A DNA stretch of 64,000 nucleotides from Escherichia phage vB_EcoM-fFiEco06 (NC_054914.1); one strand, 5' to 3'. Positions 53,800 through 62,523 are shown, counted from the stretch's first letter. Made by a program: numbers and translations. The notes: generated from the sequence alone by a model not told the origin.

Positions 53800-54764
53800 T
53801 GTATTCTTTAGAGGAATTTAATAATCAAGCAATAAACGCAGATTTCCAACGTAATAATATGTTCAGCTGTGTTTTTGCTACAACTCCATCAACTAAAAGC
53901 TCTTCGTTGATAAGTTCAATTAGCAACTTTTCTTATAATAACTTGGGCCTAAATTCAGATTGGTTAGGATTAACTCAAGGCGATATTAATCAGGGAATTA
54001 CTACGCTAATTACAGCTGGCACACAAAAACTGATAAGAAAATCAGGGGTTAGTAAATATCTTATTGGTGCCATGAGTCAACGTACAGTTCAAAGTTTATT
54101 AGGCTCATTTACAGTTGGTACATATTTAATTGACTTCTTTAACGTGGCATATAACTCATCTGGATTGATGATATACTCTGTAAAAATGCCAGAGAATAGA
54201 TTATCCTATGAAACTGACTGGAACTATAATTCTCCTAATATTCGTATAACTGGGAGAGAATTAGACCCTTTGGTTATTTCATTCAGAATGGATTCAGAAG
54301 CTTGTAACTATCGTGCAATGCAAGACTGGGTTAACGCTGTTCAAGACCCAGTAACTGGATTGCGTGCTTTGCCGCAAGATGTCGAGGCAGATATTCAGGT
54401 TAATCTTCATTCTCGCAATGGATTACCACATACTGCGGTGATGTTCACTGGATGCATTCCAGTGTCCGTAAGCGCTCCTGAGTTATCATATGATGGAGAT
54501 AACCAAATAACTACATTTGATGTTACTTTTGCGTATAGAGTGATGCAGGCTGGAGCAGTTGATAGACAAGCTGCCCTTGAATGGCTTGAATCTGCTACTA
54601 TAAATGGTATTCAAAGCGTTCTCGGAAATAGTGGAGGTGTTACTGGACTATCTAATTCGCTTTCACGACTTAGTAGATTAGGGGGAACTGCAGGAAGCAT
54701 TTCAAATATTAATACTATGACAGGAATTGTCAATTCGCAGAGTAAAATATTAGGAGCAATATAA
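53799..54764 (+). CDS. 54: gp54 baseplate tail tube initiator
   Basis: 321 aa (T4 gp54 320). Confidence 0.9.
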   Translation: MYSLEEFNNQAINADFQRNNMFSCVFATTPSTKSSSLISSISNFSYNNLGLNSDWLGLTQGDINQGITTLITAGTQKLIRKSGVSKYLIGAMSQRTVQSLLGSFTVGTYLIDFFNVAYNSSGLMIYSVKMPENRLSYETDWNYNSPNIRITGRELDPLVISFRMDSEACNYRAMQDWVNAVQDPVTGLRALPQDVEADIQVNLHSRNGLPHTAVMFTGCIPVSVSAPELSYDGDNQITTFDVTFAYRVMQAGAVDRQAALEWLESATINGIQSVLGNSGGVTGLSNSLSRLSRLGGTAGSISNINTMTGIVNSQSKILGAI

Positions 54765-54768
54765 CAAT

Positions 54769-54795
54769 GGGGACCTTTCGGTCCCCATATTTTTA
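54769..54795. terminator. bidirectional terminator between gene 54 (+) and minus-strand ORF
   Basis: GGGGACC-TTTC-GGTCCCC followed by ATATTTTTATTT. Confidence 0.65.
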
Positions 54796-55083
54796 TTTAC
54801 GGAATGAAATGAAAGCAGAAACTGAAGCAACTAAACTGTCTTCAATATAAACTTCAATTTTTACCGGAGCTTCTGACTCAAATTTACCTGTTACTACACC
54901 TTGGAAAATACTTTCAGTCTGTTCTGGCTTTGAAAAATTTTCAGAAGGAAAAATTCCGAACTTTTTATCTGTTCCAAAAATTTTGATAAATTCATCGTAA
55001 ACTGCTTCATTAAAAGCATTATCAGCAGGAATAACTCCTTCAACTACAAGTTCTTGACCTAAAAAGCGCAAAGAAGATTTCAT
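54793..55083 (-). CDS. hypothetical protein
   Basis: 96 aa ORF, ATG start; early-promoter-like element upstream. Confidence 0.5.
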   Translation of the reverse strand: MKSSLRFLGQELVVEGVIPADNAFNEAVYDEFIKIFGTDKKFGIFPSENFSKPEQTESIFQGVVTGKFESEAPVKIEVYIEDSLVASVSAFISFRK

Positions 55084-55114
55084 TTTGTGTTCCTCATGTT
55101 ATGTCAGTAAGACT

Positions 55115-55144
55115 ACTATAACACAACACGAGGGACTTGTAAAC
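55115..55144 (-). promoter_or_regulatory. putative early promoter (-35 GTTTAC, 18-nt spacer, TGTTATAGT)
   Basis: Same GTTTAC/extended -10 architecture as ip-locus promoters; lies over the 3' end of the alt-like gene. Confidence 0.4.
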
Positions 55145-57201
55145 TACATTTTGAACTTTTTAGACATTCCGTTGATGTTAACCAAAGAAGTCAAGATTTG
55201 AGAAACTTCATTTTCCTCTTCTTTTGATTCTTCTACAAGGAATTGATTAAATCCAGCCATTGGACGAACTTCACCAGTTTCCATTAGATGGTCTCCATCA
55301 TATACTGATTCTTCTAATTGTTCAGAAGGAGGAACGATTGTACCTTCGATTAGATACTTGTTATAAGCAGTTTCTTTCATAAAGTACGTACTTACTTTAT
55401 TAATCTTCAGTAAAATTCCACGTGGTAGAATAACTTCAGCTTCTGATGGAAATCCTGATAAATGACCTGGAACGATAACTTTGATTCGCTCAGCTCCTTT
55501 AATTACCATACCCACGCTAGTTTCTGCATCTTCATTAGCATATGTAGAATGACTACCCATATGCATCAAATCTTCTGCATCAACGGAACCTTCTCCTTCA
55601 CCAGAAAATACTGCGCCGGAATCATCTAGAGCCATATAGTTTTTACCATGCTCACCGAAGATATTTGGTTTAAGCGATGTGGATACGAAGTTCTTGAAAT
55701 AGAACATTTTATTTTCAATGTTATGACGCAAAGTTTTAAAGGTAACTTCTTGCCCACGGTAAAGTGTAGTTCCTGGAGGAAGAACTGATCCTTTGGCAAA
55801 GGCAGAATCTAACGTCTCGATGTGCTTAATAGCTCGTTCCATGTATTCTTCACGGGTAGAATCTGGTTTACCCAAAAGGAACGAGTTCATTTCAACATAT
55901 GAATCTGCACAATAATCTTCAATTACATCAGATTCAGCCTGAGTCAGTCCTTTTGGAGCTACTTCGGTGCTTGCGTATTCATATGCCTGGGCAGCAGATT
56001 CATTAATCAATTTATAAATGCCATTCATTACAAATTGAATAATAGCTGTCTTTTCATCTGGTGTGGTTTTAGAACCTTTAACTAAATCATTAATAATTTT
56101 CTTAATAACATCAAAGCTATTAGAAATATTAATGTCAGCAAGATCGCTTAAAATTTTATCAGTTTTATAATCAAAGAATTCTTTATTCTTTAAATATTCT
56201 TGAGAACCTTGATATGTTATATCGCTCTGCAACTTGATAGATGGATCACGTAAACGTGCATGGGCCAATGCAATATGATTTCGGAAGCTTTCTAGTTCAT
56301 AATCGCTAGATTTAAAACGAGAAGCACTTCTCATACCACCGATAGCTCCTTTGCTGAAGTTTGAACCAATCTGGATAACGCCAGAGTTCATTGGTCCTTC
56401 TGCTTTATATACCGGAACTTTAGATTCAAACTCTTGATATTTCTTGGCAGCGAAGCTATCACCCTGTAGCGAAGCATCGACAGTAGAATATTGAGCTTGT
56501 GCTGCTAATCGACGACTAATTTTAGTTTTCTGAATAACAGCTTGGTCCGTGCGCTTATCATTTTCTAAAGCAATAGAAGCAGCAACAGCGACAGCTTTAG
56601 GAACAGCATTTCCTGTTTTAACGTCTACATAAACATCACCGACCTTTGATTCAACTTTTGTGAATAACTCAGTTGAAATGGGAGGTACACCTGGAATGTC
56701 TTCTAAATTGGCATTTTTACGGTAAACCATAATATATGCGTACTTTTTATCGTAATCCCAGATTTCCTTTAAAAGAACATATCGACCTGCTCCTTTAGTA
56801 CGTACTAAACGGTCAGCAATAACTTGCATTTGACGAGCTGCGCCATTTGTTTTACTCTTTAGTACACGGAATAAGCACGCGTCAATTTTATACTGCTTCA
56901 TTGTTTGAAGAGCAGTATCAAAAACGGCATTAATGACACCAATTGGATTTCCACCCAAGTTTTTAAGCTTAACTAATGATAGTTTCTCATTAACACCTAT
57001 CATTACGATATGCATCATTTTATCGCCTGGCTTAACGTTTTTATTCGTATCACCACCAGAGGTGTATGTACAAAATCTAAATCCAGGAAGCACGCTTTCT
57101 TCGCCGGCTTGAATAGCAAAAATTTGTGGTATTTTATGCTTAGGATTTAAGTTAACAACCGGCGCCGAAGCGCCGTCAAATAATTCTGTAATAAGTTCCA
57201 T
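55144..57201 (-). CDS. Alt-family ADP-ribosyltransferase paralog (distal copy)
   Basis: 685 aa; N-terminal region near-identical in blocks to the upstream copy; R-S-E ART signature TLYRGQ / NFVSTSL / EAEVILPRG. Confidence 0.8.
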   Translation of the reverse strand: MELITELFDGASAPVVNLNPKHKIPQIFAIQAGEESVLPGFRFCTYTSGGDTNKNVKPGDKMMHIVMIGVNEKLSLVKLKNLGGNPIGVINAVFDTALQTMKQYKIDACLFRVLKSKTNGAARQMQVIADRLVRTKGAGRYVLLKEIWDYDKKYAYIMVYRKNANLEDIPGVPPISTELFTKVESKVGDVYVDVKTGNAVPKAVAVAASIALENDKRTDQAVIQKTKISRRLAAQAQYSTVDASLQGDSFAAKKYQEFESKVPVYKAEGPMNSGVIQIGSNFSKGAIGGMRSASRFKSSDYELESFRNHIALAHARLRDPSIKLQSDITYQGSQEYLKNKEFFDYKTDKILSDLADINISNSFDVIKKIINDLVKGSKTTPDEKTAIIQFVMNGIYKLINESAAQAYEYASTEVAPKGLTQAESDVIEDYCADSYVEMNSFLLGKPDSTREEYMERAIKHIETLDSAFAKGSVLPPGTTLYRGQEVTFKTLRHNIENKMFYFKNFVSTSLKPNIFGEHGKNYMALDDSGAVFSGEGEGSVDAEDLMHMGSHSTYANEDAETSVGMVIKGAERIKVIVPGHLSGFPSEAEVILPRGILLKINKVSTYFMKETAYNKYLIEGTIVPPSEQLEESVYDGDHLMETGEVRPMAGFNQFLVEESKEEENEVSQILTSLVNINGMSKKFKM

Positions 57202-57204
57202 GAT

Positions 57205-59262
57205 TTATCCTTGAACGAACTTGTAAGGCATGTTTGCAATATCTATACAAGACGCAATAATTCCAAGAGATGATTCTACTTTCTGTTTAACGTTTGATGA
57301 AACAAATGATGTAAAGTCAACTCTGTCTTCTATTTCAATATCACCTGTCATTGCAACTACTTCGCCGGTTTCCATTAGACGGTCACCGTCATAAATTACC
57401 GATTCGGTGAGTTCTTCTGTGGTCATAACTTCAGCTTGAATAAGCTTGTTGTTAGTTTTAACTGTTCCATCATTGTAAGATGCATCGGTTATTTTATTAA
57501 CTTTGACCATTAATCCACGTGGCAAAATGACTTCCATTTCATTTGAAGGTGCTAAACTTCCACCTGGTAAAACAACATTGACTTTATCAGCCCCAGTAAT
57601 AACCCATCCAATTCCAACTAAATTATCGCTAGAATTTACTAGTCCTTCATCAGTTTTATCAATAGAAACACTTAAACGCTTTTCGTCTGGTAAAACACCC
57701 ACAGATGAATCAGTCATCCAGGTACCAAAAATATTTGGATATAATGATGTTGACACAAAATTTCTAAAATAAAAAACTCGATTTTTTACCAGTGCTTCAT
57801 ATATTGAAGGTAACATTCGTTGTGAACGATACAAAGTAATACCTTTTGGTAATCGTTCACCATTTTTAAAGGCAGAATCTAAATTATCAATAGCTTTTTC
57901 TATATCAGATGCTGTCAAAATACTTGTACGCTCATCTGGATTATATAATCCCAAAAGAGCGTTATTTATGTCTACATATCCTGAACTTACGTATTCACGA
58001 ATTCCGCGTTTTTGTGCCGGTGTGTATTTAGATGAATCTTTATTTTCGACTATAGGATGTAGTGACCATCCAGCGGTAAGAGCATATCCACGCAATTCTC
58101 TTCGAATAATCTTTGTTTTTATTGCATTCCAAGAATTTTGTACTAACTCATTCGCAGCATCTTGATTTAAATGCGAATGCTTGTTAATGTTTCTTTCTAA
58201 CCAAGCACCTTTATATTTTTCTAAAGTATCATCAACTATAGAAGCAATAGTTTCTAAAGTTTTTATTGAAGTAATAGATTCTTTTCGTAATCTTTCTAAA
58301 GCTTTATTTTTTATTTCTGCATTAACATCAGATTCTTTATCTTCAGGAATTATAGAAGCTTCTCTGAATGCCATTCCAGCTGTAACACTACTAAGAGCAT
58401 TCTCTAATGCAAATCCTGAAGTAGAAATAACAGTTAATTCATTAGCGTCAGAAATTAAAGGAGCGTCAGCAGGTTTATTTAATTCTGCTGCTGAAGCCTC
58501 AAATTTTTGAAACATCGGCGTTTCAAATCTAGAAGATTCCAATGATTGACTTTGCGCAATTGCTCTACGGGAAATTTTAACTTTAACGATTACAGCTTGG
58601 TCAGAACGTTTATCATTTTCTTGCGCAATAGATGCTGCAATTGCCTCATTTTTAGTTACTTGAGCTCCAGTATCTTTATTGATATAAACATCACCGACCT
58701 TCGATTCAACTTTAGTAAAGAGCTCAGTACTAATTTCCGGAACTCCCGGAATGTCTTCTAGTGATACATTTTTGCGATGTATAAGAATATATGCATACTT
58801 TTTATCGTAATCCCAGAGTTCCTTAAGAAGGACATATCTGCCACCTGAACGACTACGGATAAGTCTATCAGCAATAACTTGAATTTGTCGAGCTTGACCA
58901 GCGGTTTTAGACTTAAGAATACGAAGCATACAGGCATCAATTTTATACTGACGCATTGTTTGCATCGCAACAGTAAAAACTGAATTGATATAATTAATTG
59001 GGCTTGGACCAAGACCTTTTAATTTAGCAATTGAACCTTTAGCAGTTAATGTAAAAGGAACAATATGCATCATTTTATCGCCCATCTTTAAATCGCGATT
59101 AGTATCACCTCCAGATGTATAGGTACATAAACGAAAGCCTGGTTGTTCAATTGCATCATCAACATGAACTGAAAAAATTTGCGGTATTTTCTTCTTTGGA
59201 TTTAAGTTTGTAATCGGAAGAGTAGTATCTTCGTCAAATAATTCTGTAATAAGTTCCATCAT
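57205..59262 (-). CDS. alt: Alt ADP-ribosyltransferase (promoter-proximal copy)
   Basis: 685 aa (T4 Alt 682); R-S-E signature TLYRSQ / NFVSTSL / EMEVILPRG; late promoter and GAGAGG SD upstream; which copy is orthologous to T4 alt is not resolved. Confidence 0.8.
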   Translation of the reverse strand: MMELITELFDEDTTLPITNLNPKKKIPQIFSVHVDDAIEQPGFRLCTYTSGGDTNRDLKMGDKMMHIVPFTLTAKGSIAKLKGLGPSPINYINSVFTVAMQTMRQYKIDACMLRILKSKTAGQARQIQVIADRLIRSRSGGRYVLLKELWDYDKKYAYILIHRKNVSLEDIPGVPEISTELFTKVESKVGDVYINKDTGAQVTKNEAIAASIAQENDKRSDQAVIVKVKISRRAIAQSQSLESSRFETPMFQKFEASAAELNKPADAPLISDANELTVISTSGFALENALSSVTAGMAFREASIIPEDKESDVNAEIKNKALERLRKESITSIKTLETIASIVDDTLEKYKGAWLERNINKHSHLNQDAANELVQNSWNAIKTKIIRRELRGYALTAGWSLHPIVENKDSSKYTPAQKRGIREYVSSGYVDINNALLGLYNPDERTSILTASDIEKAIDNLDSAFKNGERLPKGITLYRSQRMLPSIYEALVKNRVFYFRNFVSTSLYPNIFGTWMTDSSVGVLPDEKRLSVSIDKTDEGLVNSSDNLVGIGWVITGADKVNVVLPGGSLAPSNEMEVILPRGLMVKVNKITDASYNDGTVKTNNKLIQAEVMTTEELTESVIYDGDRLMETGEVVAMTGDIEIEDRVDFTSFVSSNVKQKVESSLGIIASCIDIANMPYKFVQG

Positions 59263-59282
59263 AGCCTCTCTAGTGTTTATTC

Positions 59283-59290
59283 TATTTATA
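59283..59290 (-). promoter_or_regulatory. late promoter TATAAATA for the alt pair
   Basis: Exact motif 21 nt upstream of ATG 59262 on the minus strand. Confidence 0.5.
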
Positions 59291-59295
59291 AAATT

Positions 59296-59313
59296 AAAGG
59301 CCCGAAGGCCTTT
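59296..59313 (-). terminator. stem-loop AAAGGCC-CGAA-GGCCTTT between 59312..59500 ORF and alt
   Basis: Palindromic hairpin with flanking A/T runs. Confidence 0.45.
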
Positions 59314-59500
59314 AATAATCTAGTGGTAAGAGAGTACGGTATATTTCAAACTTTGGACCTTTTTCATAGGCATCAAATGTTTCTGTGAATTTATTATAAG
59401 CGTATGCATCTACAAATTCGAGAATGACTTGTGATACAGAAGTAGAAACATCTCCACCTTCTTTTTGAGCAATGACAATTGTTTCTAAGTAAGCTTTCAT
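59312..59500 (-). CDS. hypothetical protein
   Basis: 62 aa ORF; start overlaps gene 30 stop (ATGA). Confidence 0.5.
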   Translation of the reverse strand: MKAYLETIVIAQKEGGDVSTSVSQVILEFVDAYAYNKFTETFDAYEKGPKFEIYRTLLPLDY

Positions 59501-60960
59501 AAACCAGTTACCTCATGAAAATCACCAAATACATCCTCGAATGTATTAGCTTTAGTTTTATCTTCACGCAAACGAATCGCAATCGGAAGAAATAATTTAA
59601 CGTAATCAGTGCGGCCATCAGATTTTAACCAACCGTTGCATTCGCACTCTAGAATTTTTCCAATATAATAATTTTGGTTTTCCATAATGCGAGTACGGTC
59701 AAGTTCATGCGATTTTACACCGGCTTTATCTTTTAAGCCTGAACCAGCATTTACTTTAATTTTTCCACACTCTGACTCAAGAATAAATCCACCTGCTTTA
59801 GTAGGGTCTTTACGGTGAGGATAAATTCCTACAATTTTTAAATCAACATCAATTACTTCTTTAAATTTATAGAGATTTTTTGAACGAGCATTTTCCCATA
59901 ATCCATCGATATTTTTGAGAATAATACCTTCAAGACCTTGGTCAATATACTTTTTATAAATTACCTTGGCTTCGTCTAGGTTATTTACTACCTGGTTTTC
60001 AATTAAAATTACTTTATCATAGCCTGATGTCATTTGTTCTAGTTTAGAAAAACGTACATCATATTTCAAACGAAATGCAGGAAGACCGTATATTTCTACC
60101 AACGGTACATAATCCCAGACCTGAAACTTCATGCATTGTGCTTCTTTTTCAGAAATGGTTCCCTTTAAAGATTTATTGGCGATGCCATTAGATGCAGTAC
60201 GTGATTCAGCTACTTCGGCGAATTCTTTAGCTTTACTGTTTTCAGGATAAGCATCAAAAAGAAAATCTAGGCCTTCTGGCTCCTTTTCAACTTGCTCATG
60301 GTATACCAATTCGCCATCAATTAACACACCTTCTGGATGAATCTGGCGAGCTTCTGCAGTCATTTTGATTAACTCTTCTTTGAGAAGATCTAATCCTAGA
60401 TATTCATTACCAGCTCGTGATAAAAGACGAACATCATCTAATTCATCACCTCTGACTTCAGCAAAGCACCGAGCTCCATCAGCTTTTAATTGGGCAAAGG
60501 CTGGAAATTTGATATTCTTGCTAATGCCTTTTTCATCATAAGAACTTGCCAGCATTTGAGGTTGTTCAGGAATTAAACCTGGCCAAACTTTGTTTGCAAT
60601 AGATACTGATGCACCGCATTCAAGGTCTCGCATCATCACCCGACGCAAAACTTCAACATCATCTTTTTTACCGTCAGCAATATATCCAGTCAATTCCTCA
60701 ATTGCCGCATTTCCAGTCAATTTCCGAGTAGCTAATGTGAATTCAATGAAGTCAAGCATATCGGTAAGAGTCAACATTCCAAAACTCTGGGTAGCAATAC
60801 CAGGTTTAGGCCATTTCTTGATATAATACTGTAACCCACGAGAATAAGTTAGACGATATACTCGTTTAAGCAATTCATTATCTTTATTCTTTTCAAGAAT
60901 TGCTTGCTTCTGCTTAGTTGAACCAATAGATGCTATTTTGTTCAGAATTTTAAGAATCAT
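59497..60960 (-). CDS. 30: gp30 ATP-dependent DNA ligase
   Basis: 487 aa; MILKILNKIASIGSTKQKQAILEKNKDNELLKRVYRLTYSRGLQYYIKKWPKPG; adenylation motif KADGARC. Confidence 0.97.
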   Translation of the reverse strand: MILKILNKIASIGSTKQKQAILEKNKDNELLKRVYRLTYSRGLQYYIKKWPKPGIATQSFGMLTLTDMLDFIEFTLATRKLTGNAAIEELTGYIADGKKDDVEVLRRVMMRDLECGASVSIANKVWPGLIPEQPQMLASSYDEKGISKNIKFPAFAQLKADGARCFAEVRGDELDDVRLLSRAGNEYLGLDLLKEELIKMTAEARQIHPEGVLIDGELVYHEQVEKEPEGLDFLFDAYPENSKAKEFAEVAESRTASNGIANKSLKGTISEKEAQCMKFQVWDYVPLVEIYGLPAFRLKYDVRFSKLEQMTSGYDKVILIENQVVNNLDEAKVIYKKYIDQGLEGIILKNIDGLWENARSKNLYKFKEVIDVDLKIVGIYPHRKDPTKAGGFILESECGKIKVNAGSGLKDKAGVKSHELDRTRIMENQNYYIGKILECECNGWLKSDGRTDYVKLFLPIAIRLREDKTKANTFEDVFGDFHEVTGL

Positions 60961-61226: not shown

Positions 61227-62062
61227 TAGAATGCTCCTTGAAAAATATTATCACCACTAGTAGGTCTATTATACAAATACTCTATGCCACCGGGTTTAAT
61301 ATAGTTCCATGTCTGAAACGGATGCGTCTGATATGGATGATATAGATTATAAGGATTAAATCCAGGAGTTCTCCAGGTAGTGTTCCAAGGAAAAGAATCG
61401 TTTTTAATCATCTTTTCAATTACATCTTTTATAGCTTTTTCACTATCAAAACTTTCTTTATTTTCATTCGATGGAAAAAGCTTATTCTCTACATCATTCC
61501 ATGTATAAACTCGCTGTGCAGTTTTTGGAATACTGTCACGCTCCCCTCGAGCCATCCAATAAACAGGAACATTTAATATTTCACTCGCATGATCGCAGTG
61601 GTGAGCGAGATCGTCAATATAACAAATTACGTTATATTTCTCTTTTGCCTTTTTGAACAACTCTTCTTTTGAAGAATCATGACCACACATCAATACTTCT
61701 GAGAAGGCACCAGGAAAAAGAGCATTCAAATTAAATTGACGATTCAGCAGAGCGTCAATAGAATCACCCAGTGCTGTAACAGCTACAAAATTATAATCTT
61801 CTTTTAATTTGTTAATTACACACAGGGCATCTTTATATGGAGACAAATAGCGAATAAAATCTGAACGATTATACTTTTCGATTAATTTAACACCAAGTTC
61901 TTCATCGCAATTAAAGAGCTTACCAGGAGAAATAAATTTTTCGTCCTGAATCATTTTTAAAATATGTTCCAACGGAAGATTATATTTTTGGGCAAAATAA
62001 GGAAGGCCCGATTGCCAGCTTAAACACACCCCGTCAATATCAGTCAAAATAGTAGGCTTCAT
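61226..62062 (-). CDS. putative HAD-superfamily phosphatase / 5'(3')-deoxyribonucleotidase-like protein
   Basis: 278 aa; HAD motif I ILTDIDGV near N-terminus, motif II FVAVTALG, motif IV ICYIDDL; assignment by motif only. Confidence 0.5.
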   Translation of the reverse strand: MKPTILTDIDGVCLSWQSGLPYFAQKYNLPLEHILKMIQDEKFISPGKLFNCDEELGVKLIEKYNRSDFIRYLSPYKDALCVINKLKEDYNFVAVTALGDSIDALLNRQFNLNALFPGAFSEVLMCGHDSSKEELFKKAKEKYNVICYIDDLAHHCDHASEILNVPVYWMARGERDSIPKTAQRVYTWNDVENKLFPSNENKESFDSEKAIKDVIEKMIKNDSFPWNTTWRTPGFNPYNLYHPYQTHPFQTWNYIKPGGIEYLYNRPTSGDNIFQGAF

Positions 62063-62523
62063 AGAGAGTCTCTTAATAGGTTTAACACATCAATAAATTC
62101 AGCTTCGGTTAGTATTGTATCATCTTTTGTTAGACCACTAGCCATGCTATGCTTCAAAATTTTTCCTTTAGAGGCTTGTAAGGCATCACGAAACCCCTTG
62201 TTTTGAATCGCTGCTTCAAAATATGCATTTGTATACAACTCTTTCCATGCTGCAGAGTATCTTGAAAAGGGAATTCCAAGCCAGAAAAGCGTCCCACGGT
62301 CCGCAGCTCTTGCATAAGCTCTTCCACTTTGCTGGGCGGCCAAGCCGGAGAGCCCAAATATACGTTTTTGTTGTTCAACATTTTTCACCTTGCATCCTTG
62401 GAGGAATCCTTCAAGACCTCCGAATTGAATACCATCCATGACGAAAGGCCATTGGGCGAAATTACTTAATGCACACGATGGCCATCTAAAATTGCTTCTA
62501 ATCTCTAACTCAGACATTTTCAA
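62059..62523 (-). CDS. putative NADAR/YbiA-like domain protein
   Basis: 154 aa; ALSNFAQWPFVMDGIQFGGLEGFLQGCKV resembles YbiA-family core (FSNF..WP...DG.....EHYFQAQKF); motif-level only. Confidence 0.5.
   Translation of the reverse strand: MKMSELEIRSNFRWPSCALSNFAQWPFVMDGIQFGGLEGFLQGCKVKNVEQQKRIFGLSGLAAQQSGRAYARAADRGTLFWLGIPFSRYSAAWKELYTNAYFEAAIQNKGFRDALQASKGKILKHSMASGLTKDDTILTEAEFIDVLNLLRDSL

Follow-up and report, generated by a model that had tools for sequence, protein, structure and literature searches.

Two tandem full-length Alt-family ADP-ribosyltransferase genes in Escherichia phage vB_EcoM-fFiEco06, the second of which has been lost from T4

The alt locus and its two products

We analyzed the alt locus in a stretch of 64,000 nucleotides (nt) of Escherichia phage vB_EcoM-fFiEco06 (NC_054914.1), referred to here as the window; all positions below count from its first letter. 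A first-pass annotation, made from the sequence alone, had placed two full-length genes of the Alt family of ADP-ribosyltransferases (ARTs) in tandem at this locus. Both open reading frames (ORFs) were found as described: they lie on the minus strand, measure 685 amino acids (aa) each, and are separated by 3 nt (TAA-atc-ATG). The upstream gene is termed copy 1 and the downstream gene copy 2. Window positions 54700-59600 are 100% identical to the Tequatrovirus Escherichia phage vB_EcoM-fHoEco02 (MG781191.1) and 98-99% identical to dozens of further T-even phages. On the minus strand, the order of elements is DNA ligase (gene 30), alt.1, a hairpin, TATAAATA, copy 1, 3 nt, copy 2, a promoter-like site, alt.-3, and a terminator. 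The convergent baseplate genes 54 and 48 adjoin beyond this bidirectional terminator. The central elements are the following (arrows mark cleavage sites of the prohead protease gp21).

59283-59290, minus strand: late-promoter consensus TATAAATA of T4 type, a consensus match 20 nt upstream of the first ATG of copy 1
57205-59262, minus strand: copy 1, alt of the T4 allele type, an ORF of 685 codons from the first ATG and 684 from the second
58549-59262, minus strand: N-terminal module of copy 1, aa 1-238, conserved between the paralogs and holding the ITE↓L gp21 site
57202-57204, minus strand: spacer atc, 3 nt from the copy 1 stop codon TAA to the copy 2 ATG
55144-57201, minus strand: copy 2, second full-length Alt paralog, an ORF of 685 aa
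56494-57201, minus strand: N-terminal module of copy 2, aa 1-236, 68% identical to the copy 1 module and holding the ITE↓L site

The late promoter proposed in the first-pass annotation was recovered at its coordinates. In the whole window TATAAATA occurs at 25 sites versus 9.9 expected, and the site at 59283-59290 is the sole minus-strand match from 48.5 kb to the window end. A consensus scan found no TATAAATA between copy 1 and copy 2, and the site upstream of copy 1 is presumed to be the single promoter of both genes. An AAGGA Shine-Dalgarno sequence sits within the end of copy 1. The 3-nt distance from stop to start was also seen in T2, BF15, REP3, PE37, T4 (alt/alt.-1), and the three-gene array of Dhakavirus QL01, i.e. 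it is conserved across genera.

Copy 1 is the ortholog of T4 Alt: the two are 98% identical, and both genes follow alt.1. The gene starts with ATG-ATG; MG781191 annotates the second ATG (684 aa), and the T4 record MZ375356 annotates the first. Copy 2 is 42% identical to T4 Alt. It is an ortholog of T2 alt.-1 and of QL01 gene 199 and a paralog, not an ortholog, of Alt; therefore, neither the name Alt nor RNA polymerase as the target should be assumed for it. GenBank records name it "alt.-1" (T2), "Alt-like RNA polymerase ADP-ribosyltransferase," or "hypothetical protein," and the fHoEco02 record remarks that its residues 1-54 are similar to T4 Alt.-1. The PHROG 802 family ("Alt-like RNA polymerase ADP-ribosyltransferase") matched both proteins end to end, with expect (E) values of 1e-261 for copy 1 and 2e-255 for copy 2.

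Membership in the Alt/VIP2 family of R-S-E clade ARTs was evident from Pfam PF03496 (ADPrib_exo_Tox), which scored 120.9 bits for copy 1 and 72.3 bits for copy 2 at a gathering score of 23.4 bits. Pfam PF26846 ("Tevenvirinae_ADPRT") is listed as a precomputed match on homologs of copy 2, and NCBIfam returned no model for copy 1 or copy 2. The ART domains were placed by PF03496 and the catalytic codons by motif mapping.

57418-58140, minus strand: ART domain of copy 1 (Pfam match aa 375-615)
57826-57828, 57745-57753, 57538-57540, and 57532-57534, minus strand: catalytic codons of copy 1, i.e. R479, S504-T505-S506, E575, and E577
55342-55965, minus strand: ART domain of copy 2 (Pfam match aa 413-620)
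55756-55758, 55675-55683, 55441-55443, and 55435-55437, minus strand: catalytic codons of copy 2, i.e. R482, S507-T508-S509, E587, and E589

The arginine stands in the context TLYR479 in copy 1 and TLYR482 in copy 2, and the glutamates form E575-M-E577 and E587-A-E589, respectively. The R-S-E triad that the first-pass annotation had read as intact in both copies is indeed so: the Arg, STS, and ExE motifs are invariant in six paralogs from two genera and in 20 homologs. The Arg belongs to the Y-R of strand 1, and ExE is characteristic of family members specific for arginine. The same motifs align with LTVYRR and EYEVLL of CdtA. In T4 Alt, the exchange E577A abolished ADP-ribosylation (PMC11404850). 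Counted from the first Met, the second glutamate of copy 1 is E577, and its aligned equivalent in copy 2 is E589. On the basis of these motifs, copy 2 is predicted to be competent for NAD+-dependent activity of the T4 Alt type.

A sequence search of the PDB gave no match for copy 2 and a marginal CdtA match for copy 1, and no Alt structure was found by sequence. AlphaFold2 was applied to copy 2 only, from a 20-sequence alignment. The model had a mean predicted local distance difference test score (pLDDT) of 71, with values of 80-90 over most of the ART core, and it comprised an alpha/beta N-terminal domain (residues ~15-225), a helical domain (~240-470), and then the ART domain. Confidence was low only in loop 516-555 and segment 628-663. 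When the model was compared with the PDB by Foldseek, Vis, Certhrax, CDTa, C3bot, VIP2, and iota Ia were retrieved with a probability of 1.00 and E values of 2e-7 to 1e-4. The search with the whole model yielded ART-domain matches only and no fold match for the N-terminal module. As modeled, copy 2 has the ART fold. These C3-like and binary-toxin ARTs have the fold and the R-STS-ExE arrangement in common with the Alt pair. Unlike the pair, they are secreted bacterial toxins with eukaryotic or other targets, whereas the Alt proteins carry an added phage-specific N-terminal module, a helical domain, and capsid-packaging propeptides.

T4 Alt, an NAD+--arginine ADP-ribosyltransferase that leaves the virion together with the DNA, is present at ~40 copies per head, and mass spectrometry has located its trimming by gp21 at ITE-6 and LTE-619, the latter cleavage removing 63 C-terminal residues (PMC5694885). 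The recognition rule of gp21 is L/I-x-E (PMC9026906). Corresponding sites were located in both copies.

59242-59244, minus strand: codon of E7 of copy 1, the Glu of the N-terminal gp21 site ITE↓L
57184-57186, minus strand: codon of E6 of copy 2, the Glu of the N-terminal gp21 site ITE↓L
57403-57405, minus strand: codon of E620 of copy 1 (first-Met numbering), P1 of LTE↓S, equal to LTE-619 of T4 Alt (PMC5694885)
55309-55311, minus strand: codon of E631 of copy 2, P1 of LEE↓S (residues 629-631), aligned to T4 Alt LTE↓S; predicted C-terminal processing site

The N termini read (M)MELITE↓LFD in copy 1 and MELITE↓LFD in copy 2, with E6 invariant. The contexts of the C-terminal sites, LTE↓SVIYDGD in copy 1 and LEE↓SVYDGD in copy 2, align residue for residue, and E631 is likewise invariant. 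The low model confidence at residues 628-663 of copy 2 is consistent with an exposed linker around the predicted site. The invariant LME↓T in YDGDxLMETGE was considered as the C-terminal gp21 site and dropped, since the mapped T4 site LTE-619 precedes it by ten residues (PMC5694885); LME could be an additional gp21 site, which we do not claim. Because both copies keep the ITE and L-x-E↓S sites and have one late-promoter-like site in common, virion injection of both is plausible. By analogy with T4 Alt, copy 2 would be packaged, processed, and ejected. A literature search found no virion proteomics covering copy 2.

Divergence, selection, and modular exchange

Copy 1 and copy 2 are 41% identical (BLASTP, E 2e-158). 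Their identity falls from 68% in residues 1-238 to 20% in 239-418, is 46% in 419-512 and 22% in 513-552, and amounts to 36-40% in the remainder. This pattern agrees with the first-pass annotation, which had quoted peptide blocks shared by the N-terminal thirds and had described the C-terminal parts as diverged; past residue 238, identity is 20-46% by region. Synonymous divergence (dS) between the copies was 1.19, 1.36, and 1.32 in the three thirds and is thus saturated. In the N-terminal third, nonsynonymous divergence (dN) was 0.27 at a dS of 1.19. Recent gene conversion of this third was ruled out because its dS is as saturated as elsewhere and only dN is low. We therefore conclude that constraint at the protein level keeps the module similar. 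The two copies have no 31-mer in common, the longest exact shared word being 28 nt at the start codon. Assembly duplication was ruled out by the lack of a common 31-mer, by dS values above 1, and by the occurrence of the arrangement in ~400 independent phage records.

Selection was estimated by pairwise Nei-Gojobori comparison of five genomes (the window, T2, BF15, REP3, and PE37). Copy 2 gave dN/dS ratios of 0.031-0.055 at dS 0.16-0.28, and copy 1 gave ratios of 0.030-0.080, indistinguishable from those of copy 2. This comparison revealed purifying selection on both copies. The ORF of copy 2 is intact in T2, BF15, REP3, and PE37. Copy 2 is a maintained gene under strong purifying selection; pseudogenization was ruled out by its dN/dS of 0.03-0.055, in line with the earlier view that it is not a decaying duplicate.

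The few amino-acid substitutions among copy 2 orthologs are concentrated in the helical domain and the loop 516-555, which hold most of them at 9-10 variable sites per 100 aa. Outside these hot spots there are 1-4 variable sites per 100 aa, with 1-2 in the N-terminal module and the ART core. Residues 419-515 of the ART core form the least variable segment, and the catalytic core is the most constrained part of copy 2. It is also in segments 239-418 and 513-552 that the T4-type Alt allele departs from the T2-type allele. The STS-to-ExE loop is 12 residues longer in copy 2 than in T4 Alt. The proposal that the two proteins have different substrate-recognition surfaces fits these data, as the divergence is centered on the helical middle domain and the STS-to-ExE loop.

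Arrays of three tandem Alt paralogs occupy the ligase-to-gp54 interval of the Dhakavirus phages QL01 and JS10. The QL01 array consists of three genes (694, 681, and 707 aa) spaced 3 nt apart, the first of which is a copy 1 ortholog and the third a copy 2 ortholog. It differs from the window in having three copies rather than two, and its products are 33-51% identical to the window sequences. Copy 2 is closer to the third QL01 gene (51% identity) than copy 1 is (33%), and dS between the copies is saturated; we therefore deduce from sequence comparison that the duplication is old and predates the split of Tequatrovirus and Dhakavirus.

Among Tequatroviruses, the canonical alt gene is a mosaic in its own right: the T4-type allele, found in the window, and the T2-type allele of 697 aa have the same N-terminal 238 residues. 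Between these alleles, dS is 0.08 in the N-terminal module and 0.7-0.9 over residues ~250-575, where dN is 0.2-0.57; the last ~110 residues are near-identical. The copy 1 gene of T2, BF15, REP3, and PE37 is this different allele of 697 aa (72% identical), whereas the window combines a T4-type Alt with an intact copy 2. The T4-type copy 1 body was found in 173 of the ~516 matching records.

Metagenome-derived proteins (P0003-P0006) were found that join a copy-1-type N-terminal module to a copy-2-type body (97-99% identity). In a 65-kb Logan contig (SRR24155011), alt.1 and alt.-3 enclose a hybrid of this kind and no other alt gene. The breakpoints of the hybrids differ, lying at ~nt 540 there and at ~nt 660 in a second Logan contig (SRR19633722). 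These hybrid loci come from short-read assemblies and are unconfirmed independently. They look like products of unequal recombination between the homologous N-terminal modules of the tandem paralogs, and they support the idea of a common delivery module to which exchangeable effector bodies are attached.

Distribution of copy 2 and its loss from T4

The first-pass annotation had left open whether T4 carries the second copy. T4 retains only a deleted, frameshifted remnant of it. The T4 genome encodes Alt and, after it, Alt.-1 (61 aa), Alt.-2 (67 aa), and Alt.-3. Its DNA aligns collinearly with window positions 59354 to 56854 at 95.9% identity, a stretch spanning alt and the start of copy 2, and resumes at 55163. 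Alignment of T4 with the window delimits the missing segment.

55164-56853, minus strand: body of copy 2 absent from T4, ~codons 117-679, 1,690 bp

The deletion junction lies within a CTAAA(G/A)AGT microhomology. Loss of 1 nt in an A-run (AATAAAAACG in the window at 57040-57050 and AATAAAACG in T4) splits the T4 remnant into Alt.-1 and Alt.-2. This frameshift is of the homopolymer-slippage type and is additional to the 1,690-bp deletion. Copy 2 matched PHROGs 23015 and 15247, which represent T4 alt.-1 and alt.-2, with E values of 1e-38 to 1e-40. T4 alt.-1 and alt.-2 are collinear with codons 1 to ~117 and the last few codons of copy 2; they are the frameshifted remnant of a gene without its body, whereas the window holds the intact, ancestral-type gene. 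Laboratory T4 has secondarily lost copy 2.

The body that is deleted in T4 was detected at a coverage of at least 80% in 400 phage records. The T4-type deletion junction was detected in 90 records, natural isolates HY03 and slur08 among them. Orthologs of copy 2 with 98-99% identity, the same position, and the 3-nt spacing include T2 "alt.-1" (AYD82791.1, 685 aa) and the RefSeq entries of SHFML-11, PYPS2T, and fPS-65. Four genes are split into several ORFs in the Shigella phage sb4 record (PQ666542.1), namely the two alt genes, gene 48 (gp48), and the ligase gene. This fragmentation suggests indel sequencing errors rather than biology, and sb4, with its fragmented genes, was left out as a divergent ortholog.

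The pair is confirmed but already known. Many GenBank and RefSeq records annotate it as two "Alt-like RNA polymerase ADP-ribosyltransferase" genes. Nolan et al. in 2006 described T4 alt.-1 and alt.-2, as well as ORFs of RB49 and 44RR, as paralogous alt duplications (PMC1524935). A 2026 paper on phages 6phi13 and SHFML-11 reported two paralogs with 43% identity and proposed their functional divergence (PMC13600099). No experimental work on the second paralog was found in the searchable literature, and a 2025 paper in Nat Commun on injected Ip proteins contains no treatment of Alt.

Possible roles of the pair and neighboring elements

We consider it likely that copy 1 and copy 2 form a two-gene late operon encoding two catalytically competent mono-ADP-ribosyltransferases of the arginine type (R-S-ExE) and that the targets of copy 2 are different from, or partly overlap with, those of copy 1. 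Each protein would consist of a propeptide of 6-7 residues, a conserved N-terminal module of ~235 residues, a divergent helical middle domain, a C3/VIP2-like ART domain, and a C-terminal propeptide of ~55-65 residues. Both proteins would be made late, enter the prohead core via their common N-terminal part, and be trimmed by gp21 at ITE↓L and L-x-E↓S. Upon infection of the next host they would be ejected with the DNA and use NAD+ to attach ADP-ribose to arginines of host proteins. Copy 1 would act as the classic Alt, for which RNA polymerase alpha is among the targets in T4. Since the middle domain and pre-ExE loop of copy 2 show no sequence relationship with those of copy 1, the target set of copy 2 most likely differs from that of copy 1 or overlaps with it only in part. 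The interpretation offered in the first-pass annotation is supported to the extent that sequence allows it to be tested.

Several points weigh against this assignment. The activity, virion location, processing, and targets of copy 2 are all extrapolated from T4 Alt. The late promoter, from which late co-transcription of the pair is predicted, is a consensus match only. The quality of the copy 2 model from AlphaFold2 is moderate, with the variable loop 516-555 left unmodeled. Relaxed constraint on noncatalytic regions would give the same pattern of divergence with an unchanged target. Finally, T4 lacks copy 2 and yet grows well, and there are loci with a single hybrid gene, which makes copy 2 dispensable on some hosts at least.

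Dispensability in T4 would also be expected if the two genes were a redundant dosage pair, both packaged and active on the same targets (RNA polymerase alpha Arg265 and others), with copy 2 adding dose or robustness. The catalytic motifs, the N-terminal module, and the processing sites of the two proteins are the same in kind, and one presumed promoter is common to both genes. Nevertheless, we regard such redundancy as unlikely: identity is 20-22% in the middle domain and the pre-ExE loop, each copy is under separate strong purifying selection, and the paralogs have remained separate lineages from a time that predates the Tequatrovirus/Dhakavirus split, whereas pure dosage duplicates are usually homogenized or lost. 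Less weight still is given to the idea that copy 2 mainly serves as a structural or core part of the prohead, or acts late within the cell as a non-injected enzyme, with ART activity being secondary. Alt is discussed in the literature both as an enzyme and as a protein of the head core (PMC11404850), and the best-conserved part between the paralogs is the noncatalytic N-terminal module. Yet R, STS, and ExE are invariant in 20 of 20 homologs and the ART core 419-515 is the least variable segment among orthologs, which argues for catalysis as the property that selection preserves. T4 Alt, moreover, is non-essential for assembly (PMC5694885), and the gp21 sites at both ends of copy 2 mirror those of the ejected protein.

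That copy 2 might be a decaying duplicate or an assembly artifact is hardly credible in view of its 685-codon ORF, intact in T2, BF15, REP3, and PE37, the presence of its body in 400 records, and its dN/dS of 0.03-0.055; an artifact would not be 41% identical in protein to copy 1 with no common 31-mer. Decay is seen in the corresponding T4 region, which is a remnant, and both alt genes are fragmented in one GenBank record. The latter is the sb4 record, in which the ligase and gp48 genes are fragmented as well, pointing to sequencing error.

Going beyond the preferred assignment of two competent enzymes with differing targets, copy 2 could be a fourth host-takeover ART of T-even phages, co-injected with Alt and directed at other host targets, possibly a defense or stress-response factor. 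We put this forward tentatively and at somewhat less than even odds. If true, an accessory role in the arms race would explain the presence/absence polymorphism (~400 intact, deleted in T4), the swapping of effector bodies, and the hybrids that have only a copy 2 body. The textbook set of three ARTs (Alt, ModA, and ModB) would then under-describe most Tequatroviruses, since T4 is without copy 2. Knowledge of phage ADP-ribosylation comes nearly all from T4, yet T4 is the exception at the alt locus; where the T4 repertoire of Alt, ModA, and ModB is extrapolated to therapeutic or environmental T-even phages, a fourth enzyme would be expected. The locus also offers a clear example of modular evolution, in which a conserved module for capsid delivery would be coupled to exchangeable effector bodies.

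The elements that flank the pair are listed below.

59296-59313, minus strand: hairpin AAAGGCC-TTCG-GGCCTTT (UUCG tetraloop), then AATTTT, read directly from the sequence
55115-55143, minus strand: early-type promoter-like site, sigma-70/T4-early-like, TTTACA-17-TATAGT with a TG extension, 10/12 consensus matches
54793-55083, minus strand: alt.-3, 96 aa, DUF5498, downstream neighbor and not an Alt paralog
54767-54788, no strand assigned: bidirectional hairpin terminator of alt.-3 and the convergent gene 54, from a terminator scan

The hairpin at 59296-59313 was missed by the terminator consensus scan because of its short T-run; it looks like the terminator of the upstream ligase/alt.1 unit, placed just before the late promoter. 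The strong promoter-like site at 55115-55143 directly follows the stop codon of copy 2 and lies upstream of alt.-3, which is therefore probably transcribed early on its own, apart from the presumed late alt operon. Between ligase and alt, alt.1 (62 aa, 59312-59500, minus strand) matched Pfam PF24647 ("Phage blade protein") from end to end with an E value of 2e-29. Gene 30.3 (~62059-62517, minus strand; position converted from MG781191), three genes upstream of ligase, is annotated as a member of the NADAR superfamily. NADAR is an ADP-ribose-processing domain; if this holds for gene 30.3, a domain of the ADP-ribose-removing type would be encoded near both ADP-ribosyltransferase genes.

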